A DNA stretch of 64,000 bases from Minisyncoccota bacterium (lineage in GTDB: Bacteria; Patescibacteriota; Minisyncoccia; Phycocordibacterales; SW-6-46-9): positions 226,292-290,291 of the forward strand of contig JBBDRP010000002.1 in NCBI GenBank assembly GCA_040905385.1. Reading direction: 5' to 3'. The translations under genes and the position numbers were made by a program. Shown here piece after piece: positions 1,352 to 32,287 of the stretch (position 1 is the stretch's first letter; each line of letters opens with the position of its first letter). The notes under the pieces are model-generated. The model was not told where the DNA came from, searched no databases, and saw nothing but the letters and a program-made list of their open reading frames with translations.

Positions 1352-2137
1352 CGGTAGGTAATGCGGTAGCTAATAAAGCCCTTTTAGATAGGCATATTAT
1401 ATGAACTGGTAGCTAAATGACTTCTCGTTAAAGCGGGGGTCATTTTGCTTATTATTACAACCTCTAGGAAGATAAGAATATTCGTAAATTCAGAATGTTC
1501 GATCTTTCAGTTACTCTCTAGAATAAAGGTTAGTAAATCCTACTCATGAATTCTGTATAGCGATTAGATAGTGGAGGATAGTAAAAATTAGTTAAATTTT
1601 GGAAAAATAATAAAATCACTGGAGAATAATCTAAAATTTAATCTGGTATCAGCATTATTCGTATAATAAATGTTTAAAATTGCCAAAAATAAAAAATGAG
1701 TATGAATGTGAAATATCTAAATTATAATTATTTTTCTACGTAATTCTTTAAAATATTTACTGCCATAAAATGGTAAATTAACCTACCAAATACATCATAT
1801 TTACCTACCAATGAGCCTTATCTGGGCCATCGACATCAGCTGTCTGCTTACCGGGATTCAAGTATGAGGTTATTTCCTCTAAATTTCATCACTCGGTAAT
1901 GTCAATCTATTAACCCTTACATTCATAATTGGTAGGTACCTTATTTAAGTTGTTTTCGGATATTTTAATTACGGTAGGTATCTAGCTATCGCCTGAGAAA
2001 CATCTATCCTAGAACACTGTAAAATACCCCTCATATCGGCATGACGTGGTGAGTTTTGATTCAAATAATAGGTCTATTACTAGTCATATCGTGTCTCGTT
2101 TGTCCGAGAATCATGTGGATAAGATCGGGCTCAAATA

Positions 2138-5100
2138 TTGTACTATGAATGGCACATGGACGATCAACTGAATTTTGAAAATCAAACCCTTATCACCACG
2201 AACCTGGCGGCAGAGTTGACCGGGTACTCCTCAGACTACATTGGTCAGCTGGCTCGTGATGGTGGTGTTGCCTCGAAGAAAATTGCTGGTCGACGTTTTG
2301 TTGATCGCGATGAGCTGATTGCATATGCTGATGAGAATAAGAAAAGTTTTTCAATTGCTCAATTGCCTGCAGAGCATCGTCCTATATCTGACGAACCAGA
2401 ACCTGTCGAGTCATCGGCAGAGTCAAGCTCTGCACCGGAGGAAACAATAGCGACTGATGAGCAAGCGGACAACGTTGATCAGTCTGTTCCGGAAACTCCT
2501 GCGCCTGATAGTCTGAAAACGCTAGACGATGAGAATTCTGGACTGACCGTCTCTACCGATGAGATCTCTCAAAATAGAGCGTCATCACGATGGCGACTGA
2601 CGCGTGATAAGCACCGCTCGGGTGGTGGCGAGGTTGCGAAGACCTCGGTTTCTCGTTTGCCAGCGATTGCTATGTCACTGATGCTCGTTGCTTCAATTGG
2701 GATTATGTCCTTTGGCATGATTGGTTCGGGCTCTGCATCTGACGCTGGCCAGCATCGAACCTCGGACGATACTCAGTCGGTTGACCAAATAGCTGCATCA
2801 GTCGAGGCTGGATTGCTCGATACATCGGTTCGTTCAGCTGATGCTAAAGAGAAAAGCATTCTAACCTCATCGGTTGACGCGATGTCCTACTCGGTCAAGC
2901 TAGCAGCTGCCGCAGCCGGCACATCACTGAACACGTACGTTTTCCGTCCAGTCCGTAATCTTCTTTCCGATACAATCTACACCGGACTGGCCGGAATACT
3001 GAGGTTTGGTGAAGTCTTCCTCCCTGACTACTTTGGTGATTACTCAGCCGAGTTTGTGCTGAATGATGACGGTGATATTGAGATTGATCGTCAGCGAGCT
3101 GATGAGCAGATGGTGGCAATTACTCGTATCCAGAATCGAAGTCTCAGTGATCGGGTAATCATTACCGCTCTTACGCAGTTGACTGGAGTGACGGCACAGC
3201 TGGCCGAACGTATCGAGGATCCTGAAGCGACTGGTGGTGTCGCCTCACGTGATTTTGTACGTGACCGTATTGATCAGTTGCGGGACATTATGCATGGCAA
3301 CCTAGACTCCTTAATGGATGCTGTTGAGTACGATCACCCGAATGATATCGAGTTGACGACGGCGGATATTGGTACGACCACTTCCGGGGTTCTTGAGGTT
3401 ACCGGACAGACAACATTATCGCAGACACTCATAAACGGTCCGCTTTCGGTAATTGCACCAAACAGCACAAGTTCTAATACGTTGTTTGTGGATACAGCCA
3501 GTGGTCGTGTCGGTATTAATACTGATACACCGCAGTACACGTTGGATGTGAACGGCACCTTTAGAGCTGATTCATTTATCTCTAACTCCACCACTACGGC
3601 GGTTAACTTTACGGCCTCTTCGACTGACACGAATACTCTAACAGCCGACACTGCTACCATCACTGTTCTAACTGTTGGTGATCTTACCGCCACCAGCTCG
3701 GCTGATCTAGCCACGACAACCATTACAGATTTGTCGGCCTCTTCGACCGACACAGATTCGTTGACTGCTGATGATGTAGTAATTACTAATTCCACGACCA
3801 CTAATTCATACATTCAGCAGCTACTTGCTGATAATTCTACGACTACGAATGCGTACGTGACTTCTTTGGTAGCATCATCATCTAACCTCACCAGTGCCCA
3901 GATCGAGGATCTGATTGCCACCAACTCGACAACGACTAATTCTTACATTCAGAATCTCTTGAACGATAATACCACCACAACCAACGCCTACATCACCAAC
4001 CTGATTGCGGAGGACATCACAGTCACTAATGCAACAACGACTAATTCTTACATCCAGCAATTACTAGCCGATAATTCTACGACTACGAATGCGTACGTTA
4101 CCTCACTAGTGGCATCATCATCTGATCTCACCAGTGCCCAGATTGAGGACTTAATCGCGACGAACTCCACTACAACCAACGCCTACATCCAGAAACTTTT
4201 GGTTGATAACTCAACCACTACGAACGCCTTTATTACCTCTCTGGTAGCGGATAACCTGACGGCAACTAGCGGCACCATCACAAATCTCGTAGCTACAGAT
4301 TCGACCACAACCAATGCCTACATCACGAATCTGCTGGCTGACAATTCGACTTCGTCGAATCTTTATTCATCTTCGCTCATTGCAGGCAGTGGAGACATCA
4401 CTGACTTCACCGCTGAGAACGCAACGATTACAAACGCCACCACCACCAACTTCTTTGCGACCCTGGCCAACTTCACCACCGCCTTCTTTGATAACCTCAC
4501 GGCCACCATCGCCGACATTACTAATCTAGAGGTGGACAATGCAACAACGACGAACTTGGTGGCAGTACAGTCCACCACAACCGACGCGTATATTCAGAAT
4601 CTTCTGGCTGACCAGTCGACAACCACAAACTTGACCGTTACAGGCGACACCATACTCGGCAACACAGCATTGGATACGTTGACGGTTAATGCCACTGTTG
4701 AGACCGACCTGGTGCCAAACTCTAACGCTACACTGAATCTCGGTTCTCCATCCTTCTACTGGAACATTGCGTATCTGGATACGATTAATGCCAACAACAT
4801 ATCTGCGGCCTCGACCTCTATCTCTGGAACGCAGGCAGAAAGCTTTACGCTTAATACTGATAATAGTACGCAGGATGGTGAAGATTCAGAGCTAATTTTC
4901 TACCGCGGTCAGGTAACACCGAATGCGGTGATTCAATGGGATTCGGTAGCAGATCGCTTTGATTTCAATCAGTCTCTATATATAAACAATGAATCAGCGT
5001 CGACAACCAATCCGACCTTGGTGGCTGAAGGGGTGATTGGGCAGACGGCTGATCTTTTCCAGCTGGCTTCATCGTCTGGCGACACACTTTTCTCGGTTGG

Positions 5101-8100
5101 GGCGGATGGGTCTGTTGATCTAATTTCGGCTTCAGCTACTGACTTTACTGCTACCAACGCCACTACGACGAACTTCTTCGCAAGCCTCGCCAACTTCACC
5201 ACTGCCTTCTTTGATAACCTCACGGCCACCATCGCGAGTATTACAAACCTCGAGGTCGACAACGCCACGACTACCAACCTAGTTGCCACAGACGCTACGA
5301 CAACTAACCTAACGGCTAGTGGACAGACCGATCTGGCCACAACAAGTGTGACTGGTAATCTGGATGTGAATTCTGGTAGTTTGAGAATAAGCGATTCAGG
5401 ACGCGCTGGGTTTGAGATAGAAAATACTGGCGCGTCATTTACTAATTCATTTATCACTGGAGGAATCGGTAATCCAAAGTTGTTTGCTAACTGGACGTTG
5501 GATGATGAACCAAGCGATGACACAAAGCCAACCTGGGGAACCAAGCTTGCTATCGATCAAGATAGGTTTGAGATTATTCGACTACCGGCCGGAATTGGTG
5601 GTGATTCTGGAACCGGACAGTTGATGGTTGTTGACGCTGCAGGTCAAGTTGGCATTGGTACCTCAACTCCAATCGTTTCTTTAGATATTAATCACACCGA
5701 TGCAGTGCGGCTGCCGGTGGGTACCTCTGCTCAGCGACCAAGTGGTGAGTCAGGATACATCCGCTATAACAGCGATACTGCTCAGTTTGAAGGTTTTTAT
5801 GCTGGAGCGTGGCAGGGCCTGGGTGGTGTCATTGATGTCGACCAGGACACCTACATCACCGCCGAGGAAAGTACCGACGATGATCACCTGCGCTTCTACA
5901 CGGCTGGATCTGAGCAGATGACCATTACTGCTGCGGGTGATGTTGGAATCGGAACAGATAACCCAGCCGAGCGGCTTGAGGTGGCTGGCAGTGGTGGTAC
6001 TCGATTCCTGGTGTCTGATGACACTGGTTACGCCGCTTTCCGATTGGATGCTGCCAGTGGTGAGACGTCGGCCCTTGACTTTGCTCAGGCCGGAACTAAC
6101 ATCTGGGGCTTGGGTATGAAGCAGCAGTCTGGCAATGATGACTTCTGGATCTGGGATGCTCCGTCCGGAGACACACCACGATTTGTTATCGATGCCGTGA
6201 GTGGTGATGTTGGTATCGGCACCACGTCACCAGCCAACACTCTGGATGTAGACGGTGGTATTGATGCCGACACGCTTAATACTGGGCAGGGAGACAACGA
6301 ACTGTACGCGATGGATCAGGATGTTCAGATGACAGATGACGTTACGTTCGCATCGGTAGATACCGCCACCATTACAACCGACAGTTTCTCAGCTACCTCC
6401 GCAGACTTTGTTGACCTGACGGCTGATAACGCCACTACAACCAACTTCTTTGCCTCACTCGCCAACTTCACAACGGCAATCTTTGATAACCTCACGGCCA
6501 CCATCGCCACGATTACGAACCTAGAGGTGGACAATGCAACGACCACGAACCTGGTAGCAACTGATGCAACAACTACCAACCTGACCGCTACTGGACAGAC
6601 GGACTTGGCAACGACGACCGTTACCGGTGATTTCACGGTTAATACAGATAATCTGTATGTAGATGAATCAACTGGCGTTGTCGGGATAGGTATCAATAGC
6701 CCGTCTAGCTATAGCGATAATGTGCTTGATCTTGGTGGTGGTCTAGCATTTGATGGTCAGACAATGTTTAGAAGGTTGGGAAATGATTTTGAGATTGGTG
6801 ACATGCACTCTGGGGATGGTAATATTCATAATCTTTACTTCTTTACTAACGGTAATAGTAATACCGATTTGTCTATTATTGAAAGCGGTAACATTGGTAT
6901 CGCAACACGTACACCGGCTGTATCGTTGGATATAAATGCCACCGATGCAGTGCGGCTGCCGGTTGGTACCTCAGCAGAGCGCCCAAGCGGTGAGGCTGGA
7001 TTCATTCGCTACAACAGCGAAAACAGTCAATTCGAAGGTTTCTATGCCGGGGCGTGGCAGGGCTTAGGCGGTGTCATTGATGTCGACCAGGACACCTACA
7101 TTACCGCCGAGGAAAGCTCGGATGAAGATTACCTGCGCTTCTATACGGCTGGCTCTGAGCGGATGACGGTGACTAATACGGGTGAAGTAGGTATTGGTAC
7201 TACCAGTCCAGAAAATATTTTATCTATAGATACTTCAAATACGAATGATGACGGAATCAGTTTATATGAAAATGGGAATCCGCTTGCTTTTATTGGAGAT
7301 TCATCAGCTTCATTTTCCACAGGGGTCTTGAGGTTGTATTACGAGAATTCTGAAAGAGTTAGAATCAATTCTTCCGGAGATAGTTACTTTAACGGTGGAG
7401 ATATTGGAATTGGCGTTTCAAGTCCAGATGAGTTATTACACGTAGACGGAGATTCAGCAGAGTCTTACATTAAGGTGAGTACTGCATCAGGAGATAAGGC
7501 TGGTATTAAATTTATTGAAGGTTCATCAGATTTATGGACCCTTTATCACGAAAATACCAGTAACTCCTTTAGTGTAAATGAAGATGGAACAGATTATCTG
7601 AGGATAATAAGTGGCGGTAACGTTGGCATCGGTACCACCTCGCCCGCTACAACCCTTGACGTCGCTGGTACCACCACAGCCCAGGCCTTCTCCGTCGGCG
7701 GTGACACCATCAATGACTTCACCGGCCAAGGCTTGAGTGTGGCCAATAACATTTTGAACCTTGATGATGTAGAGACACTCGGCACCTCACTCACCGCCGG
7801 ATCCGTTGTCTTTAGTGATGGCTCAAGCCTGACCGAAGACAATACCAACTTCTTCTGGGATGATGCAAATGACAGGTTGGGAATTGGGACAAATAGTCCA
7901 ACGAGCCCACTTCATATTATTGATTCTGGATTTACACTTGCTGAATTTACTCGTGATTCTACAGCTGGGGCAGGATTTACTCTTAGTAATAATACTGACA
8001 GTATCAACTTTGGACTTGGAGCTGGCGGAGAATTTTTTGCTGGTATTTCTGGTGGTACTGATAATTTCTTTGCAGCAAGTTCAACTACTTTTCAGGTTGG

Positions 8101-11100
8101 CTCTAATTCACGGATTGGATTTACGAGTGGTACAAGCCCAACAGAAAGTAATGTAGACACCAGTCTTTTCCGTAACGCTGCAAATGTATTACGGACCAAC
8201 GATTCATTTATTGTTGATGGAAGTATCGGTATTGGCACGACATCACCAGCTTCCGAGCTTGATGTTTGGGGTGACTTCCGCGCTGGTACCAGCTCGACGC
8301 CGACGTTATTTTCAGATGCATCGACCGGGCGAGTTGGAATTGGAACGTCGAGTCCGGACCATAAACTCACTATTCGCGAAGATACCCCCAACTCTACTTT
8401 TGGTCTACACCTCGACGGTGCAGGTTCCGCCGAACCCACTATTTCCTTTGAAGAGAATGGTGAGGGTGAGAATTTCTTCCTCCGGTATAGTGGGCCTGAT
8501 AACAAATTTTATCTGGGGCGGGGAGTAATACCTGGTTTCTTCAGTCAAGAAGCTATAAGAATGACTATTGAGCGGAATAGCGGTAGAGTCGGAATCGGGA
8601 CGACGAATCCAGCTAGTACTCTTGACGTGGCCGGTACCACCACCGCGCAGGCTTTCTCGGTCGGTGGTGATATCATTAATGACTTTACTGGCACTGGCCT
8701 GAGTGTGGCCGCTAATGTGCTGAACGTTACGCTGAGTCCGTTTAGTACTGATGACCTCTCTGAAGGATCAAATCTGTACTTCACCGATCAGCGAGCGCGC
8801 GATGTCTTTTCTACCGATGCGACGGGACTTACCTACAGCGCGGCTTCGGGAGTACTGAGTCTCACCACCGGTTACAACATTCCACTGACAGCCAGCACCA
8901 CTGACTGGCAGAGCTTTTACGAGACACCGAGTACCCGCATTACCGCCGGTACTGGTCTGAGCTGGAGTGCCAACACGTTGAATACGAATGATATCGAGAC
9001 GCTGACCACCTCCTTCACCGCCGGATCCATCATCTTTAGCGATGGCACCAACCTCGCCCAGGACAATGCCAACTTCTTCTGGGATGATACGAATAATCGA
9101 CTCGGAATTGGGACTACTACACCATCCGCAATTCTGGAAATAGTGGGGGGTGGATCAACGCCGTACCTGCGTATCGGCTCCGGCGGTGGCGGTGCCTACG
9201 CCTTTGAGGTAGATGAGAATGACAAGGTGAGCGTCGGTACCGGCAATGACGATATCTACTTTAATACCTCGGGTGATACGCAGGTGGGTGTAGGAACCTC
9301 TTCGCCAATCTCTGACTTTACCGTTGTGGGTGATTCATACTTCCAGGGCGATGTCGAGGTTACTGGTACGACCAGCGTCGCTAGGTTCAGCGTCGCCACC
9401 GATACCATCACGGACATTACTGGTGACGGTTTGTCGGTGGTTTCGCAGGGCGGTGGAGGACTTGGGCTGACGGTGGATGATATAGAGACACTTTCAACCG
9501 GGCTTAGTGCCGGCTCTATCGTCTTTAGTGATGGCTTATTTCTAACAGAGGATAGCGACAACTTCTTCTGGGATGATGCTAGTAATCGACTCGGTATTGG
9601 GACTAGCAGTCCAAGCGAAACGCTTCAGGTTGCAGGAACCGCTTGGCTTCGCGGCTCAGGGACAACTAACGGATTACTTGTAAACTCAAGCGGAAACGTC
9701 GGCATCGGCACATTATCACCTACCACTACTTTGGAGGTCGCCGGCACCACGACCGCCCAGGCCTTCTCTGTCGGTGGCGATACCATCAATGATTTCACCG
9801 GCCAGGGGCTTTCGGTAGCTAACAATATTCTAAATCTTGATGATGTCGAGACCTTTAGTACCTCACTCTTGGCGGGCTCTGTCGTCTTCTCTGACGGATC
9901 AACATTGACCGAGGACAACGCCAACTTCTTCTGGGACGATGCGAACAATCGGCTGGGAATTGGTACCACCTCGCCAGCTTCCAAGCTGGATGTGTGGGGT
10001 GACTTCCGAGCTGGTACCAGTACGACACCGACGCTGTTTGCTGATACAGCGGCCAATCGAGTAGGGATTGGAACGGTGAGTCCGAGCCATAAACTCACTA
10101 TTCGCGAGGATGCCTCGAACGCTACTTTCGGTATGCACCTCGAAGGCGCAGGTTCTGCCGAACCTACTATTTCTTTTGAAGAGCAGGATGAGGGTGAGAA
10201 TTTTTTCCTCCGGTATAGTGGGGCTGATAATAACTTTTATCTGGGGCGGGGAGTCATACCTGGTTTTGCTAGTCAAGAAGCTATAAGAATGACTATTGAG
10301 CGGGACAGCGACAGAGTCGGTATAGGGACGACGAATCCAGCTAGTACTCTTGACGTGGCCGGAGATATCACCTCTAGCGGCGTTCTGGACATAAATGGTA
10401 CGGGGACCTCGACCTTTGAAGGTGGTATCGATATCGCTGGTTCGATTCTGCCGCGGTCCGACGCTGCCTACGACCTTGGATCTGCCAGCCTACAATGGCG
10501 CGATGTCTACATCAGTTCTGGATCCCTGTACATCGGTGGTCAGAAGGTGCTGGAAGAGGACGCGGATGGAGACATTAATATAACCGCTGACCCAGACCAG
10601 AATCTTAAGCTAACTGCGACCGGTACTGGTAGCGTACAGCTTGGTGCTACTGGCAGCGGAAGCACAAATGTGATAAGCGGAAACTTTGGTATCGGTATCG
10701 GCACCACATCACCTGCCACCACACTTGAGGTTGGTGGCACCGCAACCGTGAATGCGCTGGCGGTTGGTGGGGATACCATCAGTGACTTCACCGGTACAGG
10801 ACTGTCCGTAGCCAGCAATGTGCTGAACGTCTCTTTGGCGTCATTTAGCACAACAGACCTCGCTGAAGGCACAAATCTCTACTTCACCAATGAAAGAGCC
10901 GAGGATGCGGCCGGCGGCATGTTCTCCGGCAATACCGAGACGCTTATTACTGCCACGTATGAGGATGGAGACGGTACGGTTGATCTGGTAGTGGATAACA
11001 ACCTTGCCAACTACTCGAATGCCACCTCACTCTTCCTTGACGGTGTAACCGCTACTGGACTAGAGAAGTCAGGAACTGATGTGGCGCTTACCACCGGCTA

Positions 11101-13117: not shown

Positions 13118-13126
13118 GACAACATC

Positions 13127-13153
13127 GTCTGTAACAATCGGATTGTTACAGAC
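13127..13153. repeat. Perfect 13-bp-stem palindrome GTCTGTAACAATC-G-GATTGTTACAGAC. It is a REP-like hairpin between giant genes 1 and 2, sharing the outer GTCTGTAA/TTACAGAC stem with the hairpins at 19769-20683.
   Basis: Read directly from the sequence. 30 bp after the stop codon of gene 1, 24 bp before the start of gene 2. Confidence 0.8.
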
Positions 13154-13176
13154 ACCTAGTATTAGGGCTTAAATTT

Positions 13177-19737: not shown

Positions 19738-19768
19738 AACCCTCACCCAACCACCACCTCTACGTCTC

Positions 19769-19791
19769 GTAAGGATAACATCCTTGCAGAC
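19769..19791. repeat. REP-like hairpin copy 1 (GTAAGGATAACATCCTTGCAGAC) upstream of the HUH transposase
   Basis: Core palindrome AAGGAT-AAC-ATCCTT. The same 23-mer recurs at 20658-20680 and, with a perfect 12-bp stem, at 20531-20560. Confidence 0.8.
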
Positions 19792-19822
19792 ACTATAAGA
19801 TAAGCCTTAAATTCAACATTCT

Positions 19823-20503
19823 ATGCTTTTACACATTATAAAACGAGGAGGACGCGGCCTGCCGATTGTTGCGGATGACGATGATCGCTGGCGATATCTG
19901 AAATGTCTGTATTATCTAAATGATAAAAATCATCCGATAGGTTGGGAGCGTGATGTTGAAGCGCTTGGTTCTGGACTGCACTTTCAACGCCCGGAATCGT
20001 GGGGTGGTGAGCGCGATCCGTACGTCGATATCCTGTCGTACTGTCTGATGGATAATCATTACCATCTATTCGTTTCCGAGCGCGATGAGGGCATGATGGC
20101 GGCTTTTACGAGGTCGCTAAATAAAAGCATGTCGCAGGCCTATAATGAAAAGCAAGACACAAGCGGAAGTATCTTTCAAGGCCCGCCCAAGAAAAAGTTT
20201 GTTGAGGATGACGCCTACCTGAAATTCCTGTACGTCTATGTCAACGTCAAGAATCCCTTCGAGCGGTATCAGGGCGGCATTCGGAAGGCGATCGAGAATT
20301 TTGATGACGCCTGGGAGTTTGCGCTCGAATACGATTTCTCTAGCTTACCAGATTGTGCGGGTGACCGGGCGTCACCCATCGTGTCGCTGGATATATTTCG
20401 GGATGCATTTTCAAGCTCCGCCGAGTTCAAAGAGTTCGCCCGCGAGCAGATGCATCGGTACGGGCAGTTTCTGGAAGATGTCGATGCGGATGACTTAGAG
20501 TAG
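19823..20503 (+). CDS. tnpA: IS200/IS605-family / REP-associated (RAYT-like) HUH tyrosine transposase (Y1_Tnp)
   Basis: HuH motif MDNHYHLFV (nt ~20055-20080) and catalytic-Tyr region LYVYVNVKNPFE (compare E. coli RayT YIYINPVKHG). At 226 aa it is slightly longer than typical TnpA. Flanked by directly oriented REP-like hairpins. Confidence 0.7.
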   Translation: MLLHIIKRGGRGLPIVADDDDRWRYLKCLYYLNDKNHPIGWERDVEALGSGLHFQRPESWGGERDPYVDILSYCLMDNHYHLFVSERDEGMMAAFTRSLNKSMSQAYNEKQDTSGSIFQGPPKKKFVEDDAYLKFLYVYVNVKNPFERYQGGIRKAIENFDDAWEFALEYDFSSLPDCAGDRASPIVSLDIFRDAFSSSAEFKEFAREQMHRYGQFLEDVDADDLE

Positions 20504-20530
20504 AGAAAAGGACAGAGAGGGAGTGTCTCG

Positions 20531-20560
20531 GTGTCTGTAAGGATAACATCCTTACAGACT
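20531..20560. repeat. REP-like hairpin copy 2 with a perfect 12-bp stem, GTCTGTAAGGAT-AAC-ATCCTTACAGAC
   Basis: Read directly. 28 bp downstream of the transposase stop codon. Confidence 0.85.
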
Positions 20561-20655
20561 GAGGTTAGTAGAAATTCACAGGAATAGATGTCGAAAGTCG
20601 AGAATGTGGGTTAAAATGAAGGCTAAGTACGCGGTGGTTGCCCGGGGTCTAGGGT

Positions 20656-20683
20656 CTTGTAAGGATAACATCCTTGCAGACGA
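20656..20683. repeat. REP-like hairpin copy 3 (TTGTAAGGATAACATCCTTGCAGACGAG), same orientation as copies 1 and 2
   Basis: Near-identical to copy 1 including 4 flanking bases. 45 bp upstream of giant gene 3. Confidence 0.8.
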
Positions 20684-20727
20684 GGAAAAGGATGATGAGG
20701 GTGGGGAGGTGACGGGAAATTACGCTA

Positions 20728-23700
20728 GTGATGATTTTAGAATTTTATAAAAAAGTTAAGGAGTTTATCGGGCGGCATCCGCGGATGGTGGCGGTGGTGG
20801 GGGTGACGGTCGCGGTGCTCGTGATACTGGGAAGTGTTGGCACGCAGGCGGCGTGGTACTCATCAACCGGCGACGGCCCGACCTGGCAGTACCGCCAGAA
20901 GATTACCATCGATGCCGACCAGGTAGATGCCGAGCTGACCGACTTTCCCGTCTACGTTGATTTATCAGATTTTGGTAGTGATTTTTTTAGTAATGTCGCG
21001 GCAGATGGTGGGGATATTCGCATCACTACCGCCGATGGCACCACCGAGCTGGCGCGTGAGGTCGTCTCGGTAGACACGGCTTCATCAACCGGGGAGCTAC
21101 ACTTCAAGGCTGATAGCCTTAGCGCCTCAAGCGACAGCGAGTTTTTTATATACTACGGCAGTAGCGGCGCAAGTGATTATGCTGTTACGGATACGTACGG
21201 CCGCAATGCGGTGTGGAGTGATTATCGTTTTGTATCACATGACGCTGGTTACACTGACTCTAGTGGCGCTCTTGCTCAAGGAACTTTGTTTAATGGTATA
21301 ACGCCAAATGATTCAGCGGGAATAATTGGAAAAGCAACGCTTTTTGACAAACCTTCACAGCAGTATGTTCAACTTGGTGACACAATCATACCTCCAAGCA
21401 GTGATTTTACGTTTGATGTTTGGGCTGAGCAGTTTGATTTTACAGGAACTACTGTATCAGATGAATCATTAATACTTACTCAAAATGATTCTGGAAGCAC
21501 AAATGCTACTTTTGTGCACGGTTCTAATGCAAGACAAAACCATATTACTGGTCTGTGGGATATTAATAATAGCAGAACTCTAGAAGGTCCTGATATAAGA
21601 GGAAATGGCTGGGTAAAATTACAGATAAGAAGAGATGGTAATGAATTTAATTTATTCCATAACAATGTCCTTCAGGATGCGACCACCACAGCCATCACAA
21701 TTCCTGATGCAGCAAACGCTTATTTGGGTGCGTATGAAAATAATGGACCAGAAAGATTTTTCACAGGTTTAATTTCAGAAGTTAGATCTGCATATACTGC
21801 TCGGTCTGATGATTGGATTGCTACTGAGTACACCAATCAAAATAATACAACTGATTTCTATACCATCGGCGCTCAGGACACCCAGCCGGATTCGAACGTC
21901 GCTTTTGGGGCGAATTCGTACGGCGACTTTGCGGATACTCGCTGGAGCCACCGTGAGAAGATCACGATTGACGCCGCCCAGGTCGATGCGGATCTAGCCG
22001 ACTTTCCGGTCTATGTAGACCTGGCCGACCTATCGACAACATTTTTCCAAAATACCAACGTAACCTGTGGCGACATCCGTGTCACGGCCGGCGACGGCCT
22101 GACCGAGCTGGCTCGCGAGGTGGTGGCGTGTGATACGGCCTCATCCACTGGTGAGCTTCACTTCAAGGCCGACAGCTTATCGGCTTCTTCAGACACCGAG
22201 TTCTACATCTACTACGGCAACAACTCAGCCAATAACTACATCCATGATGAGCAGTTTGGGCGAGATAATGTGTGGTCGGATGGGTATGCTGGTGTATGGC
22301 ATCTAAGCGAAGGTTCAGGTGAGGCCCGTGACTCAACAGCTAACAGCAGTAACGGTACAAATAATGGTGCCACTCAGGGCGTAGTCGGGCAGGTAGGTGG
22401 CGGGTATGATTTCGATGGTACGGATGATTATGTAAAGATTACAGAAAATTTCGTCTCTTCTCCAAGTGAGCTGACTATTTCTGCCTGGTTTAAGAAGGAA
22501 AGTGGCGGTGATGTGTATGAGACTGTTTTACATAAGGGTTCAGCCGATACTGTCGGCAGTAGTGATTACTGGCTAGGAGTAAGTGGTGACGATAACTTAA
22601 CCGCCACTATTGGTGCCAATACTGGCGTTGGATGGGATGCTGGTGAAACTACTACTTCAGTAAATCTCGGACAATGGTATCACATGGCTGCTACCTGGGA
22701 CGGGTCTGTTGTTGAGGTTTATCTAGATGGTCAATTTAATAAGCAGTACAGTCTGAGTTCTTACGGTGATCTGAACACGGACACCAGATTCGGTTCATCT
22801 GCAGACGGTACAAATTATCAGTTTAGAGGTACTGCCAGTGAGATTAGGATTTATAACAAAAGTATTTCCGGTGACGAGATCTCCGCAACTTACCGCAACC
22901 AGAACTCACCAACCACTTTCTACACCGTCGGGGTGAATGAAGCTTCGGCCGGGCTGTTTGGTGATAACCCGTCCGGTGACTTTGCCGACGCCGACTGGGG
23001 GTATCGCGAGAAGATCACGATTGACGCCGATCAGGTCGGTGCAACTCTGACTGACTTTCCGGTCTACGTCGACCTTTCCAACTTGTCCGCAACCTTTTTT
23101 GATAATGTCACCGCCAGTGGTGGCGACATCCGTGTGACCGCCGGCGACGGCACTACCCAGCTGGCGCGGGAAGTTGTCTCGGTCAATACAGCCTCCTCGA
23201 CCGGTGAGCTGCATTTTAAGGCTGACTCAATATCGAGCACGACCGACACCAGCTTCTACATCTACTACGGTAATCCGAATGCTGATGATTATGCGGTAGG
23301 TGATACCTACGGCGCCGAGAATGTGTGGTCGAATGAGACACTAGCAGCATTCCACCTTGAGGAAAATGCTGTGAATAGTTCCGATGATAATTTCAATGGA
23401 ACAATAAACGGAAGTCCTGCCTGGGTGACTGGTGTTATTTACAGTGCTTTGGACTTCTTGGGTACTAATGGTAATAATGTCGAAATATCGAGTGCATTGC
23501 AATCAGACATTACAAATAATTCTTACACGGTTAAAGCATGGATAAATCCAAGATTAACTGGTTCTAGTAATCAAGCAATTATAGATACAGGTAGTGAAGG
23601 AGATGGTCAGATGCGCTTCTTTATGAATGACACAGATGGGTCGTTCAAGATACAAAACACAGCCAGTTTTACTGGCACAGGAGTAAGGTCTTCAGCTGGG

Positions 23701-26700
23701 ATCTTAACCGCGGATATATGGAATCAGGTTGTAGCGGTTGTAAATGGTACTAGCGCAATTTTGTATCATAACGGTCAGGAGATAACTTCAGGAACAATCG
23801 ATGCATATACAGGTAATGGCAATAATATTGCTTTTGGTGATAAACCACTAAGTTCAGGGTCTAGCATGAATGCTCTTAATGGGTCTCTGGATGAAGTTTA
23901 TATTTACAATAGTTTATTGTCTACTGACTGGATTGCCGCCGAGTACACTAACCAGTCTACCACTACTGACTTCTACACCGTCGGTAGCCTGGAAGAGCCG
24001 AGCACCGTCTTTGGCGACGATACCGATGGTGACTTTGCTGACACCGACTGGACGTATCGCGAGAAGATCACCATCAACGCCGACCAGGTGGAGGAGACGC
24101 TGACCGACTTCCCGGTCTATGTTGATCTGTCTGATTTCGGATCACAGTTTTTCAACAATGTCCGCAGTGATGGTGGTGATATTCGCATCACCGCCAGCGA
24201 CGGCACGACCGAGCTGGCGAGGGAAGTCGTCTCTGTGGACACTGCCTCATCGACCGGGGAAATCCATTTCAAGGCCGACGAGATCGACGCCGAGGCCGAT
24301 ACCGACTTTTACATTTACTATGGCAATACCGCCGCGGTCGACTACGTCGTTACGGATACGTACGGCCGTAACGCGGTGTGGAGTAACGGCTATGCTGGAG
24401 TTTGGCACACAGGCGAAGACTCTGCTACACAAACGTTTGATTCTACTGGTAACAATAATACGGGAAACTTTCAGGATAACTTACCAACCACGCAGTCTGG
24501 AAAGATTGGAGATACGCAAGATTTTGATGGCACTAGTGATTATATTGATGCGGGTACTGACTCTAGCCTAGACATCACAACTGAAATCACGGTCGGTGTC
24601 TGGGTGAATCCTGATAATACTGGTGGTGACTATACAGGAATAGTAAATAAAAGCAGAGCAGATACGGCTGGTTTCTGGATGGGGTATTCAGCGAACGGTG
24701 ATATAGTTAGATGGGAGACTAATGATGCAGGAGGAAGTTGGCATGAAGTTGATATGCCTTTAATAGATGCCGAAGTAGGAGAATGGAATCACTTCGTAGG
24801 TGTTTATGATGGTAGTGAGCTTATAGGTTATAAAAATGGTTCTCAATCAGGAACTCCTGATAGTTTTACTGGAGAATTTGAAACTACAACTAATTCCCTA
24901 AAGTTTGGAGATTTTGAGGTTGCGGATAGATGGTTTGATGGCATGCTTGATGAGATTCGTATCTCCAGTGCTGCGCGCTCTGCCGACTGGATCGCCACCG
25001 AATACAACAACCAAAATGCTCCTAGTAGCTTCTACACCATCTCTGGCAGCCCTTCCGAAGCGCCGGTGCTGCTGACTCCGGAAGATACGGCCACCGAGGT
25101 GAGCCGGGCGCCGACGCTGGACTGGCAACCGGTCCAATCAGCTACCGAGTACCAGGTGCAGGTGTCGCCAACCTCGACCTTCTCATCTATCACGGTGGAT
25201 GCGAACGCAACCGACAGCGAGATAGCTCTGGGCACGCCGTATCCGTCATTGGATGCCAGCACAACCTATCACTGGCGCGTACGCACGGTGGATGGGCAGA
25301 GCTTCGGCGCCTGGTCCACCGACTTTTCCTTTACGACAGCTGCTGGTCTGGCCGGCAGCGGTACCGAGGCCGATCCGTACCTCATCAGTACTCCACAAGA
25401 CCTGGATGACATTCGCAATGACCTGGATGCCTACTACCGACTTACGCAGGATATTGATCTGACCTTTGATACACGGGATCCAAATGGAGATTTTTATAAT
25501 GCTGGTGATGGTTGGCAGGAAATAGATAACTTTGATGGTGAATTCGATATGGGTGGATATAGTATTATCGGAGCCCGAATTTTTAATGGATTTTTTGATA
25601 ACATTGGATCAAATGGGCTTATACATTCAGGAAAATTTGCCGATTGCGAAGTTCATGGAGGATATGATCAAGGAGTTATTAACGAAACAGGAGGGGCAGG
25701 ATTAATTAAAGAAGTTGTAGTAGATAATTGTTCTGTGGCGTCGGGCAATACTACAAGCCGTAGAATTGGTGGATTTAGCGGTAGAGGAATCTCTTCTCAG
25801 GATGTTATTTCACGTAATCTTGTGCTCGGTGGAGAAGGTGATAAGGGTGCAAACACTGGACGAGTTTTTGATACCAAGGTGTACACACGAAACCTCATTC
25901 ACAATGTGAGTTGGGAGGGTGTAAGTGGTCAAACTGAAAATCCTCTTTTTGGGTGGATTCAATCTGGTGGAAATCCGACGGTAAATGATGTGTTTTTTGA
26001 TGATGATACGCTTGATTATGCCGGAACTCGAACTGACCAAGGTACCGGGCTAACTACCACCGAGGCGCAGGATATTACTACGTATGAAAATGCTGGGTGG
26101 GACATCGTTCCGATTGCTCAGCACGACGGGCAGCGGTCAACAGCAATTTGGTACATCGATGATGGCAATGATTATCCACGTCTGTGGTTCGAGTACGAGG
26201 GTGAGGGCTGGAAAGATGGCTGGAGCCACCGTGAGAAGGTCACGATCAAGTCATCGGCGGTGGATGCGACGCTGGAAGACTTTCCGGTCTATGTCGACCT
26301 AGCTGATTTCGGCGCCACGTTCTTTAATAACGTCCGTACTGATGGTGGCGATATTCGTGTCACCAAGGCGGACGGTACTACCGAGCTGGCCCGGGAGGTT
26401 GTCTCGGTAGATACCGCCTCCTCGACCGGTGAGTTACACTTCAAGGCCGACCGCCTCGCCAGCACCACCGACACAACCTTCTACGTTTATTATGGTAATC
26501 CAGATGCGTCCGAGTACGCGACTGATTATGCGTATGGTCGCAATGTTGTCTGGAGCGATTATGAAAACGTCTACCACCTCGACGAGCAAGGAGACGGTAC
26601 CACCGGAGAGCATATCGACTCAGCCGGTAACCACGACCTGACGGCTGGATACTTTTCTGCTGGTATTCCGAATCGAGTTGATGGAAACCTCGGGTACGCG

Positions 26701-29700
26701 CAGCAGTTTAACGGAACTGATACATCAATTGGTGGTGTATTTAATCTGAGTGCTAAGGATGAAATGGTCGTGTCGGTATGGGCGCAACCAACGGCCAGCG
26801 GGCAGTCCAGCCGGTCGGGAATATTTGGATACAGTGAATATAACGTTAGTTCAGCCTATCGATTGGGTGGATTTAGATTTACAAGCAGTGATTTAGGTGG
26901 GCTTGATATCTATCTAGATGATGGAAGTGCCGAGTGGTTTAACTCCACACTGACACTGAATCTCAACCAATGGAATTACATGGTGGGTAGATTTGAATCA
27001 GGGGTTACAAAAGATATTCTTATCAATGACCAGTGGGATGAACGTACTGCACCGACAGGCAGTTTGGCAGCGGGGACCTCAAGCATAGCACTTGGTGAAG
27101 TGCAGGAAGATCCTGTGAACCGCCGATTTCAGGGGCTCATTTCCGAGGCTCGCTACAGCACCGTAAAGAGGAGCCAGGAATTTTATGCCGCTGAGTATAC
27201 GAACCAATCGACCACCACCGATTTCTATACGGTCGATACGACACCAATCCAGATTGACAGCATCGAGGATTTGGATGATGTACGCAACGACCTATCAGCC
27301 AGTTATGAGTTGACGCGCAACCTGGATTTCGACGACTGCGCCTCTTATGACACCTGTGCCAATATGGACACCTACACAACCGGCAGTGGGTGGGACCCAA
27401 TTGGCACGAGTGGCGACCCTTTTACAGGTCAATTTGATTTCAAAGGACACTCAATTACCGGATTAATGATAAATAGATCTAGCACCGACTATCAAGGACT
27501 TTTCGGGGCCTTGGGACTTGATGGTTATATTCATAGCGGTTCAATTATTAATGCAGATGTTATCGGTGAGAAACGTACTGCAGTACTTGTTGGTTTCATG
27601 GATGGAAATGCACTTGTCGAACATATTTCTATTAGGAATAGTACTGTTGGAGGGTCGTACAGTGGTAACAAGGGACTGTTAGTTGGATGGTTAAATAGCA
27701 CTACTTCTCTGATAAGAGATTCTTATGCTCAAGGGCAAGCAATTGTAGGTAATTATAGTGCTGCAGCTGGAGAAATACATCCTGTTGATGCTCAGTTTCC
27801 TTCTGAAAATCTTTACTTTGTCGGAACTCTTGATTATGGTGCCAGTAGCCCTGTTGGAGGTATTGATGCGGCAGATAATGCTTTAAATAGTTTTTATGAT
27901 CAGGATGTTGCAGGAGAAATTTTTGGAGCAGATCCAGGAAATGCAACAACAACGGTCATAATGCAGGACATTGATACGTATATTAATGCTGGCTGGGACA
28001 TCGTCCCGATCGAAGAGCATGACGGGCAGGAGTCGACGGCGACCTGGTTTATTGATGATGGTAATGACTATCCGAAGCTGTGGTTTGAACGCGAGGGGGC
28101 CCAAAGCACAGCGTTTGGCGACGACCCCGACGGCGACTTTGCCGACACCGACTGGAGCCACCGCGAGAAGATCACCATCAACCCCGACAAGGTGCCGACG
28201 GTTACAAGTAGCGTTAATTCGCGCGTCACGCAATCCAGTGATGATGCTGAGGAAAAGCTTTCCGATAATAGTATGCTTATCTCAAGTTCTGATCTTGAAC
28301 TTATCGCTGATGGCACGTCGCCTGGCGGCGATCAAGAGATCGGACTGCGTTTCCAGAACATTACTATTCCCCAGGGTGCCGTGATCACCAACGCCTACAT
28401 CGAGTTCCAGACCGACGAGACCAACAGCACTACCACCAACCTAACCTTCCGCGCGGAGGATAATAACGATACGACGACCTTTACTACCGGTAGTGGTGAC
28501 ATTACCAACCGATCCAAGACAGCCGCCTCGGTTGATTGGAACAACGTGCCGGCCTGGAATACGATTAGCGAAAAGCATCAGACCCCGGATCTGTCGGCGG
28601 TGGTGCAGGAGGTGGTTGATCGCGCCGGCTGGCAGAGTGGTAACGCGATGGCGATGTTTGTCACTGGTGACGGAACCCGGATTGCCGAGGCATATGATGG
28701 CGAGGCGGCCAATGCACCGCTGCTGCATATCGAGTACGAATCTCCAGCGGCAACCTTGACGGATTTTCCAGTTTATGTTGATCTGGCCGATCTGTCGGAT
28801 ACGTTTTTCGTCTACGTAGCAAATGACGGGGCGGACATCCGCGTGACGGCCGGTGACGGGCTGACCGAGCTTCCGCGGGAAGTCGTGTCTGTGGATAGCG
28901 TCGGGAAGACGGGTGAGCTGCACTTCAAGGCCGATGCAGTATACGGGTCGGTCGGGACTGAGTTCTACATCTACTACGGTAATCCGTTTGCTGTGAATTA
29001 TTCAGCCACGGATACGTATGGTGCTCAGAATGTGTGGAATAGTAATTATGTGTTGGTTAGCCATGATGGAGGTGCCACAGATTCAACAAGCAATGGAAAT
29101 AATGGAACTGCTAATGGTGATGCTACTGCAGGGATAGCTACTGGTAAAGTTGGTACTGCTGCAGAATTTGATGGAGTTAGTGATTCATTCCAGATAGCAG
29201 ACGACGCTTCGCTTGATACACCCTCCGCAATCACTATTACAGCTTGGGTAAATGCGAACTCATTCAAGTCTGACTTCAGCGAAATTGTTAGTAAGAAGTT
29301 TGATACTGGTTATGATTTCTTGGTCGACAATGATGCTGGCACAAACGATTTGGAATTCATAAGTTTTGATGCAGATATTCTTCAGTATTCCAACGATAAC
29401 GTGGTTGCCACTAGTACTTGGTCTCATGTGGCTGTTACATATGATAAATCAAATGTAAATTTTTATGCGGATGGCTCGTATGAAGGAGGCGGTGCAGAGA
29501 CGGCAGATATTGGTACGAATAATGAGGATCTGTATATCGGTAGCGATGCAGGTAATAGCTGGGAGTGGAATGGACTTATTGATGAAGTCAGGATACTCTC
29601 TAGTTCTCAATCTGCTGACTGGATTACAGTCGAGTATAATAACCAGTCGTCTCCATCCACCTTCTACTCTGTAGGTACGCAGGAGATTAGCGGCGAAGAC

Positions 29701-30423
29701 ACGATACCGCCGTATCCAGATCCGAGCGAGTTTGCCGTGGCACCAGATGGGGCCAGCACGTCGTCGATCACGATGACGGCTGCCACCTCTACGGACGGCG
29801 AGGGATCAACCCCGGTCGAGTACTACTTCAACTACCAGGCGTGTGCTGCCGATGCCGGCACCGGCTGGAGTCACTCTGGTTGGTTGGTGGAGACGTCGTA
29901 TACCGACGAGAATCTCCAGGTTAACCAGTGCTACAGCTACCGCGTAAAGACCCGGGATAGCCTGGGTAACGAGACGGCGTACTCGGCAACATCCAGTGCC
30001 TACACCGCCGCCGCAATTCCGGACGCGCCGTCACTTTCCAACCCGACGGAGACGACGCTGGACTTGGTGAACAATGAAGGTGCCAACCCAACCGCTAATC
30101 CCGACACCACCTTTGCGGTACAAGTCAGCGATACCTCACCAGGAGACCAGACCTGGACAAACCAGTACGTCAACGCCAGTGGTGAGCCGTCAGCCACCGC
30201 CGTCTGGCTGACAGACAGCCAGCTGAGCGGCTTGACGGTTACCATGCTGGAGCCGAACATCACCTACACCTTCCGCACCAAGGCTCGCAATGAAGACGGT
30301 GACGAGACCGGCTGGTCGGCGACAACCGTGGCCTCGACCTCGTCTGACTACCCAGATGAGACGGACACCTCAACCCGTCTGCGCGGCGGCTCGACCATCC
30401 GCGGTGGCAGCACAGCGCAGTAA
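20728..30423 (+). CDS. Giant (3231 aa) surface protein, paralogous to gene 2. Has an N-terminal TM anchor, at least seven DUF2341-like modules interleaved with LamG_3 domains, two FN3 domains and a distinct insert domain (nt ~28225-28745). C-terminus ends in ...LRGGSTIRGGSTAQ.
   Basis: Same module signatures as 13177-19737. Long near-identical stretches shared with gene 2 (e.g. AAGLAGSGTEADPYL.STPQDLDD.RNDL; TTAEAQDI.TY.NAGWDIVPI..HDG..STA.WYIDDGNDYP.LWFE). Terminal FN3: YYFNYQACAADAGTGWSHSGWL...YSYRVKTRDSLGNET. Confidence 0.85.
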   Translation: MMILEFYKKVKEFIGRHPRMVAVVGVTVAVLVILGSVGTQAAWYSSTGDGPTWQYRQKITIDADQVDAELTDFPVYVDLSDFGSDFFSNVAADGGDIRITTADGTTELAREVVSVDTASSTGELHFKADSLSASSDSEFFIYYGSSGASDYAVTDTYGRNAVWSDYRFVSHDAGYTDSSGALAQGTLFNGITPNDSAGIIGKATLFDKPSQQYVQLGDTIIPPSSDFTFDVWAEQFDFTGTTVSDESLILTQNDSGSTNATFVHGSNARQNHITGLWDINNSRTLEGPDIRGNGWVKLQIRRDGNEFNLFHNNVLQDATTTAITIPDAANAYLGAYENNGPERFFTGLISEVRSAYTARSDDWIATEYTNQNNTTDFYTIGAQDTQPDSNVAFGANSYGDFADTRWSHREKITIDAAQVDADLADFPVYVDLADLSTTFFQNTNVTCGDIRVTAGDGLTELAREVVACDTASSTGELHFKADSLSASSDTEFYIYYGNNSANNYIHDEQFGRDNVWSDGYAGVWHLSEGSGEARDSTANSSNGTNNGATQGVVGQVGGGYDFDGTDDYVKITENFVSSPSELTISAWFKKESGGDVYETVLHKGSADTVGSSDYWLGVSGDDNLTATIGANTGVGWDAGETTTSVNLGQWYHMAATWDGSVVEVYLDGQFNKQYSLSSYGDLNTDTRFGSSADGTNYQFRGTASEIRIYNKSISGDEISATYRNQNSPTTFYTVGVNEASAGLFGDNPSGDFADADWGYREKITIDADQVGATLTDFPVYVDLSNLSATFFDNVTASGGDIRVTAGDGTTQLAREVVSVNTASSTGELHFKADSISSTTDTSFYIYYGNPNADDYAVGDTYGAENVWSNETLAAFHLEENAVNSSDDNFNGTINGSPAWVTGVIYSALDFLGTNGNNVEISSALQSDITNNSYTVKAWINPRLTGSSNQAIIDTGSEGDGQMRFFMNDTDGSFKIQNTASFTGTGVRSSAGILTADIWNQVVAVVNGTSAILYHNGQEITSGTIDAYTGNGNNIAFGDKPLSSGSSMNALNGSLDEVYIYNSLLSTDWIAAEYTNQSTTTDFYTVGSLEEPSTVFGDDTDGDFADTDWTYREKITINADQVEETLTDFPVYVDLSDFGSQFFNNVRSDGGDIRITASDGTTELAREVVSVDTASSTGEIHFKADEIDAEADTDFYIYYGNTAAVDYVVTDTYGRNAVWSNGYAGVWHTGEDSATQTFDSTGNNNTGNFQDNLPTTQSGKIGDTQDFDGTSDYIDAGTDSSLDITTEITVGVWVNPDNTGGDYTGIVNKSRADTAGFWMGYSANGDIVRWETNDAGGSWHEVDMPLIDAEVGEWNHFVGVYDGSELIGYKNGSQSGTPDSFTGEFETTTNSLKFGDFEVADRWFDGMLDEIRISSAARSADWIATEYNNQNAPSSFYTISGSPSEAPVLLTPEDTATEVSRAPTLDWQPVQSATEYQVQVSPTSTFSSITVDANATDSEIALGTPYPSLDASTTYHWRVRTVDGQSFGAWSTDFSFTTAAGLAGSGTEADPYLISTPQDLDDIRNDLDAYYRLTQDIDLTFDTRDPNGDFYNAGDGWQEIDNFDGEFDMGGYSIIGARIFNGFFDNIGSNGLIHSGKFADCEVHGGYDQGVINETGGAGLIKEVVVDNCSVASGNTTSRRIGGFSGRGISSQDVISRNLVLGGEGDKGANTGRVFDTKVYTRNLIHNVSWEGVSGQTENPLFGWIQSGGNPTVNDVFFDDDTLDYAGTRTDQGTGLTTTEAQDITTYENAGWDIVPIAQHDGQRSTAIWYIDDGNDYPRLWFEYEGEGWKDGWSHREKVTIKSSAVDATLEDFPVYVDLADFGATFFNNVRTDGGDIRVTKADGTTELAREVVSVDTASSTGELHFKADRLASTTDTTFYVYYGNPDASEYATDYAYGRNVVWSDYENVYHLDEQGDGTTGEHIDSAGNHDLTAGYFSAGIPNRVDGNLGYAQQFNGTDTSIGGVFNLSAKDEMVVSVWAQPTASGQSSRSGIFGYSEYNVSSAYRLGGFRFTSSDLGGLDIYLDDGSAEWFNSTLTLNLNQWNYMVGRFESGVTKDILINDQWDERTAPTGSLAAGTSSIALGEVQEDPVNRRFQGLISEARYSTVKRSQEFYAAEYTNQSTTTDFYTVDTTPIQIDSIEDLDDVRNDLSASYELTRNLDFDDCASYDTCANMDTYTTGSGWDPIGTSGDPFTGQFDFKGHSITGLMINRSSTDYQGLFGALGLDGYIHSGSIINADVIGEKRTAVLVGFMDGNALVEHISIRNSTVGGSYSGNKGLLVGWLNSTTSLIRDSYAQGQAIVGNYSAAAGEIHPVDAQFPSENLYFVGTLDYGASSPVGGIDAADNALNSFYDQDVAGEIFGADPGNATTTVIMQDIDTYINAGWDIVPIEEHDGQESTATWFIDDGNDYPKLWFEREGAQSTAFGDDPDGDFADTDWSHREKITINPDKVPTVTSSVNSRVTQSSDDAEEKLSDNSMLISSSDLELIADGTSPGGDQEIGLRFQNITIPQGAVITNAYIEFQTDETNSTTTNLTFRAEDNNDTTTFTTGSGDITNRSKTAASVDWNNVPAWNTISEKHQTPDLSAVVQEVVDRAGWQSGNAMAMFVTGDGTRIAEAYDGEAANAPLLHIEYESPAATLTDFPVYVDLADLSDTFFVYVANDGADIRVTAGDGLTELPREVVSVDSVGKTGELHFKADAVYGSVGTEFYIYYGNPFAVNYSATDTYGAQNVWNSNYVLVSHDGGATDSTSNGNNGTANGDATAGIATGKVGTAAEFDGVSDSFQIADDASLDTPSAITITAWVNANSFKSDFSEIVSKKFDTGYDFLVDNDAGTNDLEFISFDADILQYSNDNVVATSTWSHVAVTYDKSNVNFYADGSYEGGGAETADIGTNNEDLYIGSDAGNSWEWNGLIDEVRILSSSQSADWITVEYNNQSSPSTFYSVGTQEISGEDTIPPYPDPSEFAVAPDGASTSSITMTAATSTDGEGSTPVEYYFNYQACAADAGTGWSHSGWLVETSYTDENLQVNQCYSYRVKTRDSLGNETAYSATSSAYTAAAIPDAPSLSNPTETTLDLVNNEGANPTANPDTTFAVQVSDTSPGDQTWTNQYVNASGEPSATAVWLTDSQLSGLTVTMLEPNITYTFRTKARNEDGDETGWSATTVASTSSDYPDETDTSTRLRGGSTIRGGSTAQ

Positions 30424-32254: not shown

Positions 32255-32287
32255 AGATTCGTAATTTTTAGCTCTTAGCTCATACCT

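Follow-up and report, generated by a model that had tools for sequence, protein, structure and literature searches.

Which structures allow Patescibacteria to recognise and hold a host is little understood beyond the type IV pili of Saccharibacteria. The question is raised by three giant genes in a 64-kb stretch of a Minisyncoccota bacterium genome (GenBank assembly GCA_040905385.1, contig JBBDRP010000002.1, positions 226,292 to 290,291; hereafter the window): what kind of surface structure could they build? An earlier inspection of the letters, which we call the sequence-only reading, had described them as a tandem array of same-strand genes covering 44% of the window. An open reading frame (ORF) scan returned exactly the sizes and positions claimed: gene 1 at 2138-13117 (3659 aa, opening at TTG), gene 2 at 13177-19737 (2186 aa) and gene 3 at 20728-30423 (3231 aa), all on the forward (+) strand, as are gatB and the ORF between genes 2 and 3 described below. 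The three-gene span of 28 kb takes up 44.2% of the window, or 42.6% if the ORFs alone are counted, and stop-free frames of this length have a chance of 10^-49 to 10^-82 given the local base composition. The array is not uninterrupted, however, as a 226-aa ORF separates genes 2 and 3 (see below). The earlier description of giant and repetitive proteins that are exported or membrane-bound also holds; they are in addition strongly acidic, with net charges of -391, -242 and -326 for genes 1, 2 and 3. The explanation that we favour, with moderate confidence when taken as a whole, is that the genes form a surface-protein locus on the chromosome of a Patescibacterium and not a prophage, in which gene 1 would encode a membrane-rooted fibre and genes 2 and 3 lectin-type arrays, with a joint role in contact.

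The N-terminal part of gene 1 sets it apart from a phage fibre. Its start is likely the ATG at 2156, giving a product of 3653 aa (2156-13117), because the database record P0170 begins there and close homologues open with MDDE or MDDQ. P0170 has 3653 aa, the same length as gene 1 from Met7, and its first 444 residues, the part that was compared, are identical. ORF residues 19-67 (2192-2338) form a putative helix-turn-helix (HTH) domain of the HTH_17 type, predicted to be cytoplasmic. HTH_17 (PF12728) was matched by 35 of the 41 sampled family members, with a best E-value of 1.6e-12, the HTH region of gene 1 itself matches PHROG 66 (excisionase/regulator), and the homologue P0001 carries the JGI label 'excisionase family DNA binding protein'. 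A database of 5.8 billion proteins was searched with N- and C-terminal pieces of gene 1; the family of its module of HTH domain and transmembrane (TM) helix comprises 661 proteins, 322 of them at E<=1e-10.

By hydropathy, gene 1 has a single TM helix at residues 174-196 (2657-2725). An acidic linker and then a basic stretch lie between the HTH domain and the helix, and an acidic segment lies beyond it. Lysine and arginine together number 8 in the 40 residues before the helix and 2 in the 40 residues after it, and this positive-inside bias around the sole TM helix therefore argues for an orientation with the N-terminus inside. Cysteines occur in closely spaced pairs only, as extracellular proteins would show. 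Gene 1 would thus be a type II membrane protein with its HTH_17 domain in the cytoplasm, a prediction that shares the moderate confidence of the explanation to which it belongs. The sequence-only reading had assigned an N-terminal membrane anchor to each of the three proteins. For gene 1 the anchor itself holds and its position does not, since the helix follows a cytoplasmic domain. We also considered anchoring by sortase; this was ruled out, as none of the three proteins contains an LPxTG motif anywhere or has a C-terminal hydrophobic segment.

Beyond the membrane, internal repeats occupy gene 1 from residue ~450 to 3140. They begin with a Thr/Asn-rich shaft segment (3485-4747) with a periodicity of 15 and 45 residues (NSTTTNAYIxxLLAD), within which a 240-nt tandem repeat is found at 3785-4229; shorter blocks related to this shaft recur at residues ~1000-1075 and 1415-1500. 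The fibre region proper (5435-11557) spans ~2,000 residues and contains 20 motifs of the 'GxVGIGTxxP' type together with large diverged repeats. PHROG tail-fibre families match residues ~1150-3260 with E-values down to 1e-22. PHROGs 9942, 18345, 32294 and 6005, annotated as tail fibre or baseplate, match the fibre region, and PHROGs 9942, 18345, 5668 and 1980 match gene 1 at E 1e-15 to 1e-20. By tblastn the similarity is distant: annotated tail fibres from phages of Synechococcus, Pelagibacter, Burkholderia and Thermus and from T5-like phages are matched at 26-42% identity.

The fibre region is followed by an intramolecular chaperone of the Peptidase_S74 type at residues 3166-3223 (11633-11806). 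The match to PF13884 is well above the cut-off (56.4 bits vs 22, E 3.6e-15). The residues S3166, D3167 and K3171, arranged as S-D-x-x-x-K, are invariant in 16 of the 16 aligned homologues; the role of this Ser-Lys dyad is known from work on endosialidase and MYRF. An AlphaFold2 model of the S74 part, with a local pLDDT of 80-95, matches the MyRF ICA domain (7dc3; Foldseek E 2e-4, TMt 0.61) and, weakly, the endoNF chaperone (3gw6, E 0.35). Directly before the predicted cleavage site lies a Cys-x11-Cys loop (11585-11632) formed by C3150 and C3162, the sole cysteines of gene 1, and this pair is kept in homologues. The PHROG families and the Peptidase_S74 match thus bear out the earlier assignment of tail-fibre repeats plus an S74 chaperone to gene 1.

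S74 is not the end of the chain. It is followed by a long helix, an acidic disordered linker, a small beta-domain, a second acidic linker and a DUF5011 Ig-like domain, in that order. The stretch of helix and small beta-domain (12092-12469, residues ~3319-3444, ending in 'TFDYFIIGV') was modelled with a pLDDT of 80-89, and for the beta-domain we found neither a significant fold match nor a Pfam match. A guess that it is an H-type lectin was dropped, as it rested on one insignificant match (2ccv, E 0.3) and had no Pfam match. The Bact_surface_Ig-like (DUF5011) domain at 12776-12994 was recognised by Pfam with an E-value of 6e-16; it has acidic Ser/Thr-rich linkers on either side, and its sequence matches in the PDB are Ig-like domains of chitinase 60 and bacillolysin. 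Both parts recur in relatives. The beta-domain has counterparts in P0007 and P0015, both from Patescibacteria, and S74 is likewise followed by a DUF5011 Ig-like domain in P0015, P0017, P0023 and P0030.

The genomic neighbourhood of relatives ties the membrane module to fibres in a second way. Upstream of gene 1 lies gatB (44-1351), and this neighbour is a conserved one for the HTH-TM gene family. At least 20 Patescibacteria loci show, immediately downstream of gatB and in its orientation, one or two genes that encode HTH_17-TM proteins of 260-430 aa, and in two further loci the HTH gene is divergent and upstream of gatB. Comparison with syntenic loci, which the sequence-only reading had proposed as a check, thus revealed a conserved gene order. 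In the loci L011, L030 and L045 a separate giant gene follows the HTH-TM gene, with its own classical signal peptide, a conserved NPEINYQGKL start and VGIGT motifs, and the one in L045 additionally carries S74. A comparable giant neighbour without the shared N-terminal start is found in L004. In L007, L009, L010, L025, L082 and gene 1, the HTH-TM module is instead fused to a fibre-type ectodomain. This split-versus-fused pattern, our main new result, argues that the HTH-TM family supplies the membrane root of these fibres. Fusion and neighbourhood tie ~660 uncharacterised HTH-TM proteins to surface fibres and therefore suggest a role for a large phylum-specific family. One of the loci examined, L014 (JBLIMJ010000028.1), is labelled Acidimicrobiales and has a Patescibacteria-type gatB with two HTH-TM genes; it may be mis-binned.

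How would such a protein work? The chain would run from HTH_17 through an acidic linker and the TM helix into a tail-fibre-like ectodomain of ~2,970 residues and then S74. Most likely, S74 nucleates trimerisation from the C-terminal end after export, like in phage fibres and endosialidases, and then most likely cleaves itself off at Ser3166. The product would be a membrane-rooted trimeric filament with a disulfide-closed loop at its distal tip, and a 494-residue acidic fragment comprising the small beta-domain and DUF5011 would be either freed or held non-covalently. Gene 1 shares with phage S74 fibres and tailspikes, such as the K1F endosialidase and the T5 L-shaped fibre pb1, the VGIGT-type repeats, the S74 Ser-Lys dyad and a predicted long helix after S74, as well as, presumably, C-terminal trimerisation followed by self-cleavage. 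Unlike them, it is chromosomal and cellular with no virion genes nearby, its N-terminus is a cytoplasmic HTH domain with a TM anchor in place of a virion-attachment domain, its S74 is non-terminal with 436 conserved residues behind it, and at 3,653 aa it is far longer.

Two cellular systems invite comparison. To our knowledge, the other protein in which a single chain unites an S74/ICA domain with a DNA-binding-type domain and a TM helix is MYRF, and among solved structures its ICA domain gave the best match to the gene 1 S74 model. MYRF has this domain placed between its DNA-binding domain and its TM helix, so that cleavage frees a transcription factor. In gene 1, by contrast, the TM helix divides HTH from S74, which are ~2,970 residues apart and on different sides of the membrane, and cleavage therefore cannot release the HTH domain. 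RodZ and the ToxR/CadC regulators also have a cytoplasmic N-terminal HTH domain, a basic juxtamembrane stretch, a single TM helix and an extracytoplasmic domain. Gene 1 resembles them in architecture only: its HTH domain is of the HTH_17 (MerR/excisionase) type and not Xre/HTH_25 or an OmpR-type winged helix, DUF4115 is missing, and in place of a small sensor the ectodomain is a fibre of 3,400 aa.

In the literature that we searched, no paper linked S74 or tail-fibre proteins to Patescibacteria (or candidate phyla radiation, CPR). Nor did we find there a description of the gene 1 architecture of cytoplasmic HTH, TM helix, fibre shaft, non-terminal S74 and conserved extension next to gatB, and this combination deserves follow-up. 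It offers an example of phage receptor-binding machinery put to use by a cell, and makes the locus a testable attachment candidate in the much larger Paceibacteria branch, namely a cell-anchored phage-fibre-like filament with a self-cleaving chaperone. One may go further and propose that gene 1 and its split relatives form a Patescibacteria-specific apparatus, a domesticated phage-type trimeric fibre on an HTH_17-TM root. The HTH domain would couple the filament to DNA or the cytoskeleton, much as in ToxR or RodZ, and by passing contact or tension at the tip through the membrane the fibre could act as a sensor of host contact besides being an adhesin. Self-cleavage would then set free the post-S74 fragment as a second product with a function of its own. 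We regard this extended proposal as a long shot.

Genes 2 and 3 are built differently. Both begin with a signal peptide or anchor and carry alternating DUF2341 (PF10102; E 1e-23 and 7e-37 in genes 2 and 3) and Laminin_G_3 domains (PF13385; E 3e-69 and 1e-95), all above the gathering scores. Local hidden Markov models resolved four DUF2341-LamG modules in gene 2 (13375-14331, 14491-15387, 16675-17595 and 18661-19593) and six in gene 3 (20920-21819, 21979-22881, 23032-23934, 24085-24993, 26257-27183 and 28744-29625), in agreement with the arrays described in the sequence-only reading. All four domain types named there, tail-fibre, Peptidase_S74, DUF2341 and LamG, were thus recovered by the profile searches that it had proposed. 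Each gene further contains one fn3/Ig domain (15484-15741 in gene 2, 25090-25347 in gene 3) and two spacer domains of ~300 aa (15736-16620 and 17644-18600; 25342-26200 and 27232-28110). Gene 3 has in addition two C-terminal fn3 domains at about 29626-30380, and an RGG motif closes both proteins. Structure prediction of a single module, another check that had been suggested, gave a confident and rigid model (pLDDT 90.4, pTM 0.90). The LamG half has the ConA-like jelly-roll fold.

The two halves of the module have diverged to very different degrees. Whole modules are 31-48% identical at the protein level, whereas mean identity among modules is 66% for the DUF2341 half and 26% for the LamG half. 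Genes 2 and 3 would therefore combine a single scaffold with ten different LamG surfaces. The two genes align collinearly, gene 2 over residues 32-1830 and gene 3 over residues 730-2489, with 44% identity, and are therefore old paralogues. Their DUF2341-LamG homologues, 454 at E<1e-10, come from Patescibacteria, Chloroflexi, Caenarcaniphilales and Thorarchaeota, and many begin with a short signal peptide of the classical kind whose cleavage point directly precedes the (A/S)WY at the start of DUF2341. In genes 2 and 3 the hydrophobic N-terminus closes with an AxA-like site at the same position, IQA|TWY and TQA|AWY respectively, and the proteins may therefore be secreted rather than anchored. 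Of the N-terminal anchor assigned earlier to these two genes, the hydrophobic segment is present and may be a cleavable signal peptide.

The ~300-aa spacer occurs in four copies with 58 invariant positions, beginning with PYLIxTPQDLDDVRNDLxAYY and ending with AGWDIVPIxxHDGxxSTAxWFIDDGNDYPRLWFE. It had no Pfam match at E<=1 and no sequence relative in the PDB, and a GLUG or beta-helix-like nature, which had been guessed, is for the same reasons unsupported. A search of NCBIfam gave only a sub-threshold TafC match, via the LamG domain. The extreme C-terminus of both proteins reads RGG...RGG(VEFR) (19690-19734 in gene 2, 30376-30420 in gene 3), with no TM helix after it. The motif occurs in 15 of 120 DUF2341-LamG homologues (for example 'SRGGVKFR' and 'IRGGEIRGGVEFR'), whereas a check of 1,414 other ORFs did not find it once. 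It may serve in sorting or retention; as a general sorting signal it is not supported, given its absence from the other ORFs.

Proteins of this kind have been reported before. An adhesin role was proposed in Patescibacteria both for giant proteins with DUF2341/FhaB (PMC11809585) and for those with fn3/ConA (PMC13059738), and adhesins are required for the epibiotic growth of a Saccharibacterium (PMC10633639). Genes 2 and 3 agree with the reported proteins in phylum, size class, acidity, repetitive build, domains and proposed adhesion, and differ in their four and six resolved DUF2341-LamG pairs, the ~300-aa spacer, the RGG motif and the lack of FhaB. They are further members of an already reported kind and add little beyond the earlier reports; what the locus contributes here are two proteins that combine a conserved scaffold with ten different lectin-type domains. 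For DUF2341 a link to pilus-tip adhesins (PilY-like; archaeal arCOG03508) has been described as well (PMC4858521). We rejected a type IV pilus-associated adhesin of this type for genes 2 and 3. Unlike PilY-like tip adhesins and lectin-bearing minor pilins (S. sanguinis PilC, 7oa7), their N-termini lack the pilin-like class III signal (G(-1)/F(+1)/E(+5)), and a search of the ORFs in the window with 150 aa or more found no pilus-related Pfam family.

Genes 2 and 3 would be exported via their N-terminal signal peptide or signal anchor, and in each module the conserved DUF2341 scaffold would present a divergent ConA-like (LamG) lectin-type domain, amounting to ten putative binding surfaces. Together with the gene 1 filament, the proteins would most probably serve to bring the cell into contact with a host cell or substrate through its glycans or surfaces, and we infer that all three are probably attachment devices.

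Several observations weigh against parts of this explanation. The HTH_17 match of gene 1 itself is below threshold (21.8 bits for a cut-off of 27, E 2e-4). Phage PHROG profiles carry S74 in their last ~100 positions, whereas gene 1 has 436 residues after it, and its processing may therefore differ from that of phage fibres. The hydrophobic regions of genes 2 and 3 are ~20 residues long, which is compatible with either a signal peptide or an anchor. Finally, the DUF2341 half had no solved structural relative in the hit lists, and no ligand-binding residues were identified in the LamG domains.

Genes 2 and 3 can also be read not as host adhesins but as polysaccharide-harvesting or S-layer-like envelope proteins, with LamG domains as carbohydrate-binding modules for glycans of the environment and possibly catalytic spacers. 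The invariant Asp, His and Trp positions in the four spacer copies would fit such a role, and so would the fact that DUF2341-LamG proteins are common outside episymbionts, in the Chloroflexi, Caenarcaniphilales and Thorarchaeota. Yet no catalytic family was detected at E<=1, the spacer has no PDB sequence relative, and the nearby GT4, GH57 and GH15 genes, 610 nt from gene 3, look like cytoplasmic glycogen-type metabolism. We therefore consider a harvesting or envelope role unlikely, though still worth keeping in mind, and continue to favour attachment.

Another possibility is that the locus serves antigenic or phase variation, with its repeats as substrates for frequent gene conversion or module shuffling that would alter the surface proteins from cell to cell in a population. 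The sequence-only reading had called recombination-driven variation plausible, noting long near-identical segments shared between genes 2 and 3 and repeated within gene 1. Near-identical they are not: the best DNA repeat pairs reach 78-86% identity over stretches of 280-514 nt, most are 65-75% identical, the longest exact repeat is 41 nt and 42 distinct 30-mers recur. The mismatches involve all four bases, and 55-75% of them fall on codon position 3, which points to old divergence after duplication under purifying selection and neither to recent gene conversion nor to mutagenesis by a diversity-generating retroelement (DGR). A DGR target is also ruled out by the lack of a reverse transcriptase in the window and of an adenine bias in the repeat mismatches. 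No invertase was found in the window either, and there is only one weak tandem repeat. Ongoing recombination-driven variation is therefore unsupported.

Some facts nevertheless fit a variation system. Module number is variable between relatives, as judged from sequence on an evolutionary scale: the protein P0050 has the N-terminus of gene 2 and an identical C-terminal tail, yet counts 775 aa with two modules where gene 2 has four. Domain reshuffling has been proposed for giant Patescibacteria proteins (PMC11809585), and the contigs of relatives often terminate within the gene-1-like ORF. Genes 2 and 3 are moreover separated by the ORF mentioned above (19823-20503, 226 aa, with the motif 'NHYHLF'), which resembles IS200-like HUH enzymes and the transposases associated with repetitive extragenic palindromic (REP) sequences, known as RAYT; its match to Y1_Tnp lies below the Pfam cut-off (20.6 bits vs 23, E 5e-4). 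REP-like palindromes, TGTAAGGATAACATCCTTRCAGAC, flank it on both sides (19768-19791, 20533-20559 and 20658-20681), and a search for them gave four matches against none expected and none elsewhere in the 64 kb. Given the age of the repeats, we hold a recombination-driven variation system to be improbable.

The similarity of gene 1 to phage proteins raises the question of whether it is a prophage or tailocin tail-fibre remnant without a cellular role. The PHROG and tblastn matches to phage tail fibres and S74 chaperones would be expected of such a remnant. However, while gene 1 resembles tail fibres in sequence, it does not reside among virion genes: the window contains no capsid, terminase, tail-tube, baseplate or integrase gene. 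Gene 1 shares no more than 26-42% identity with phage proteins, it has a GC content of 50%, near that of the rest of the window (47%), and the third-position bias of the repeat mismatches indicates maintained coding. Its in-frame fusion to the HTH-TM module and the conserved chromosomal gatB neighbour across Patescibacteria are further difficulties. On the absence of virion genes and the conserved synteny we reject a phage origin of this kind as very improbable, and retain a cellular fibre. Still less credible is that the giant ORFs are assembly chimeras from repeat collapse or mis-joining; their repetitive content and the frequent breaks of relatives' metagenome-assembled contigs in homologous genes would suit this, but the exact repeats given above are too few and too short to mislead assemblers, the frames are intact across 2,186-3,659 codons, the domain order is coherent, the termini are conserved in the independent homologues P0050, P0053 and P0007, and the recorded protein P0170 equals gene 1 in length.

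The sequence-only reading had called the architecture characteristic of host-attachment proteins in ultra-small episymbiotic bacteria. In a search of 185,579 species genomes, the closest relatives of the GatB encoded in the window were all Patescibacteria (Campbell-, Kaiser-, Lloyd- and Paceibacterota and 'Parcubacteria') with 50-58% identity, which therefore supports the attribution to the CPR (Paceibacteria-like). A close relative of the host was not found in these collections with the GatB query.

Between gatB and gene 1 lies an intergenic region of 804 nt (1352-2155) with 33% GC, in contrast to ~47-50% elsewhere, in which only weak promoter-like sites were seen. A search of Rfam with this AT-rich leader gave no match. 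In the relative L081, the equivalent position is occupied by a gene of 234 aa.

The downstream flank of the three genes is of a housekeeping type, with genes for GT4, GH57 and GH15 enzymes, a major facilitator superfamily transporter, RNase J, a solute-binding protein, GroEL, LemA, an HtpX-like M48 peptidase, ribonucleotide reductase (RNR), MurJ, LepA and tRNAs. The GT4/GH57/GH15 cluster (31034-35758) begins 610 nt past gene 3 and is of a glycogen- or trehalose-type metabolism; no connection of it to the surface proteins was established. Of two further ORFs, one of 196 aa at 44767-45357 has no Pfam family, and one of 577 aa at 46341-48074 has a short PsbP_2-like match only. Finally, two RNR systems adjoin each other at 51863-57819. 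The class I pair has an ATP-cone on its small subunit (51863-53197) and a large subunit without one (53245-54921), and the second system is a 775-aa ATP-cone protein (55492-57819) with class II-type RNR_Alpha and insertion domains.

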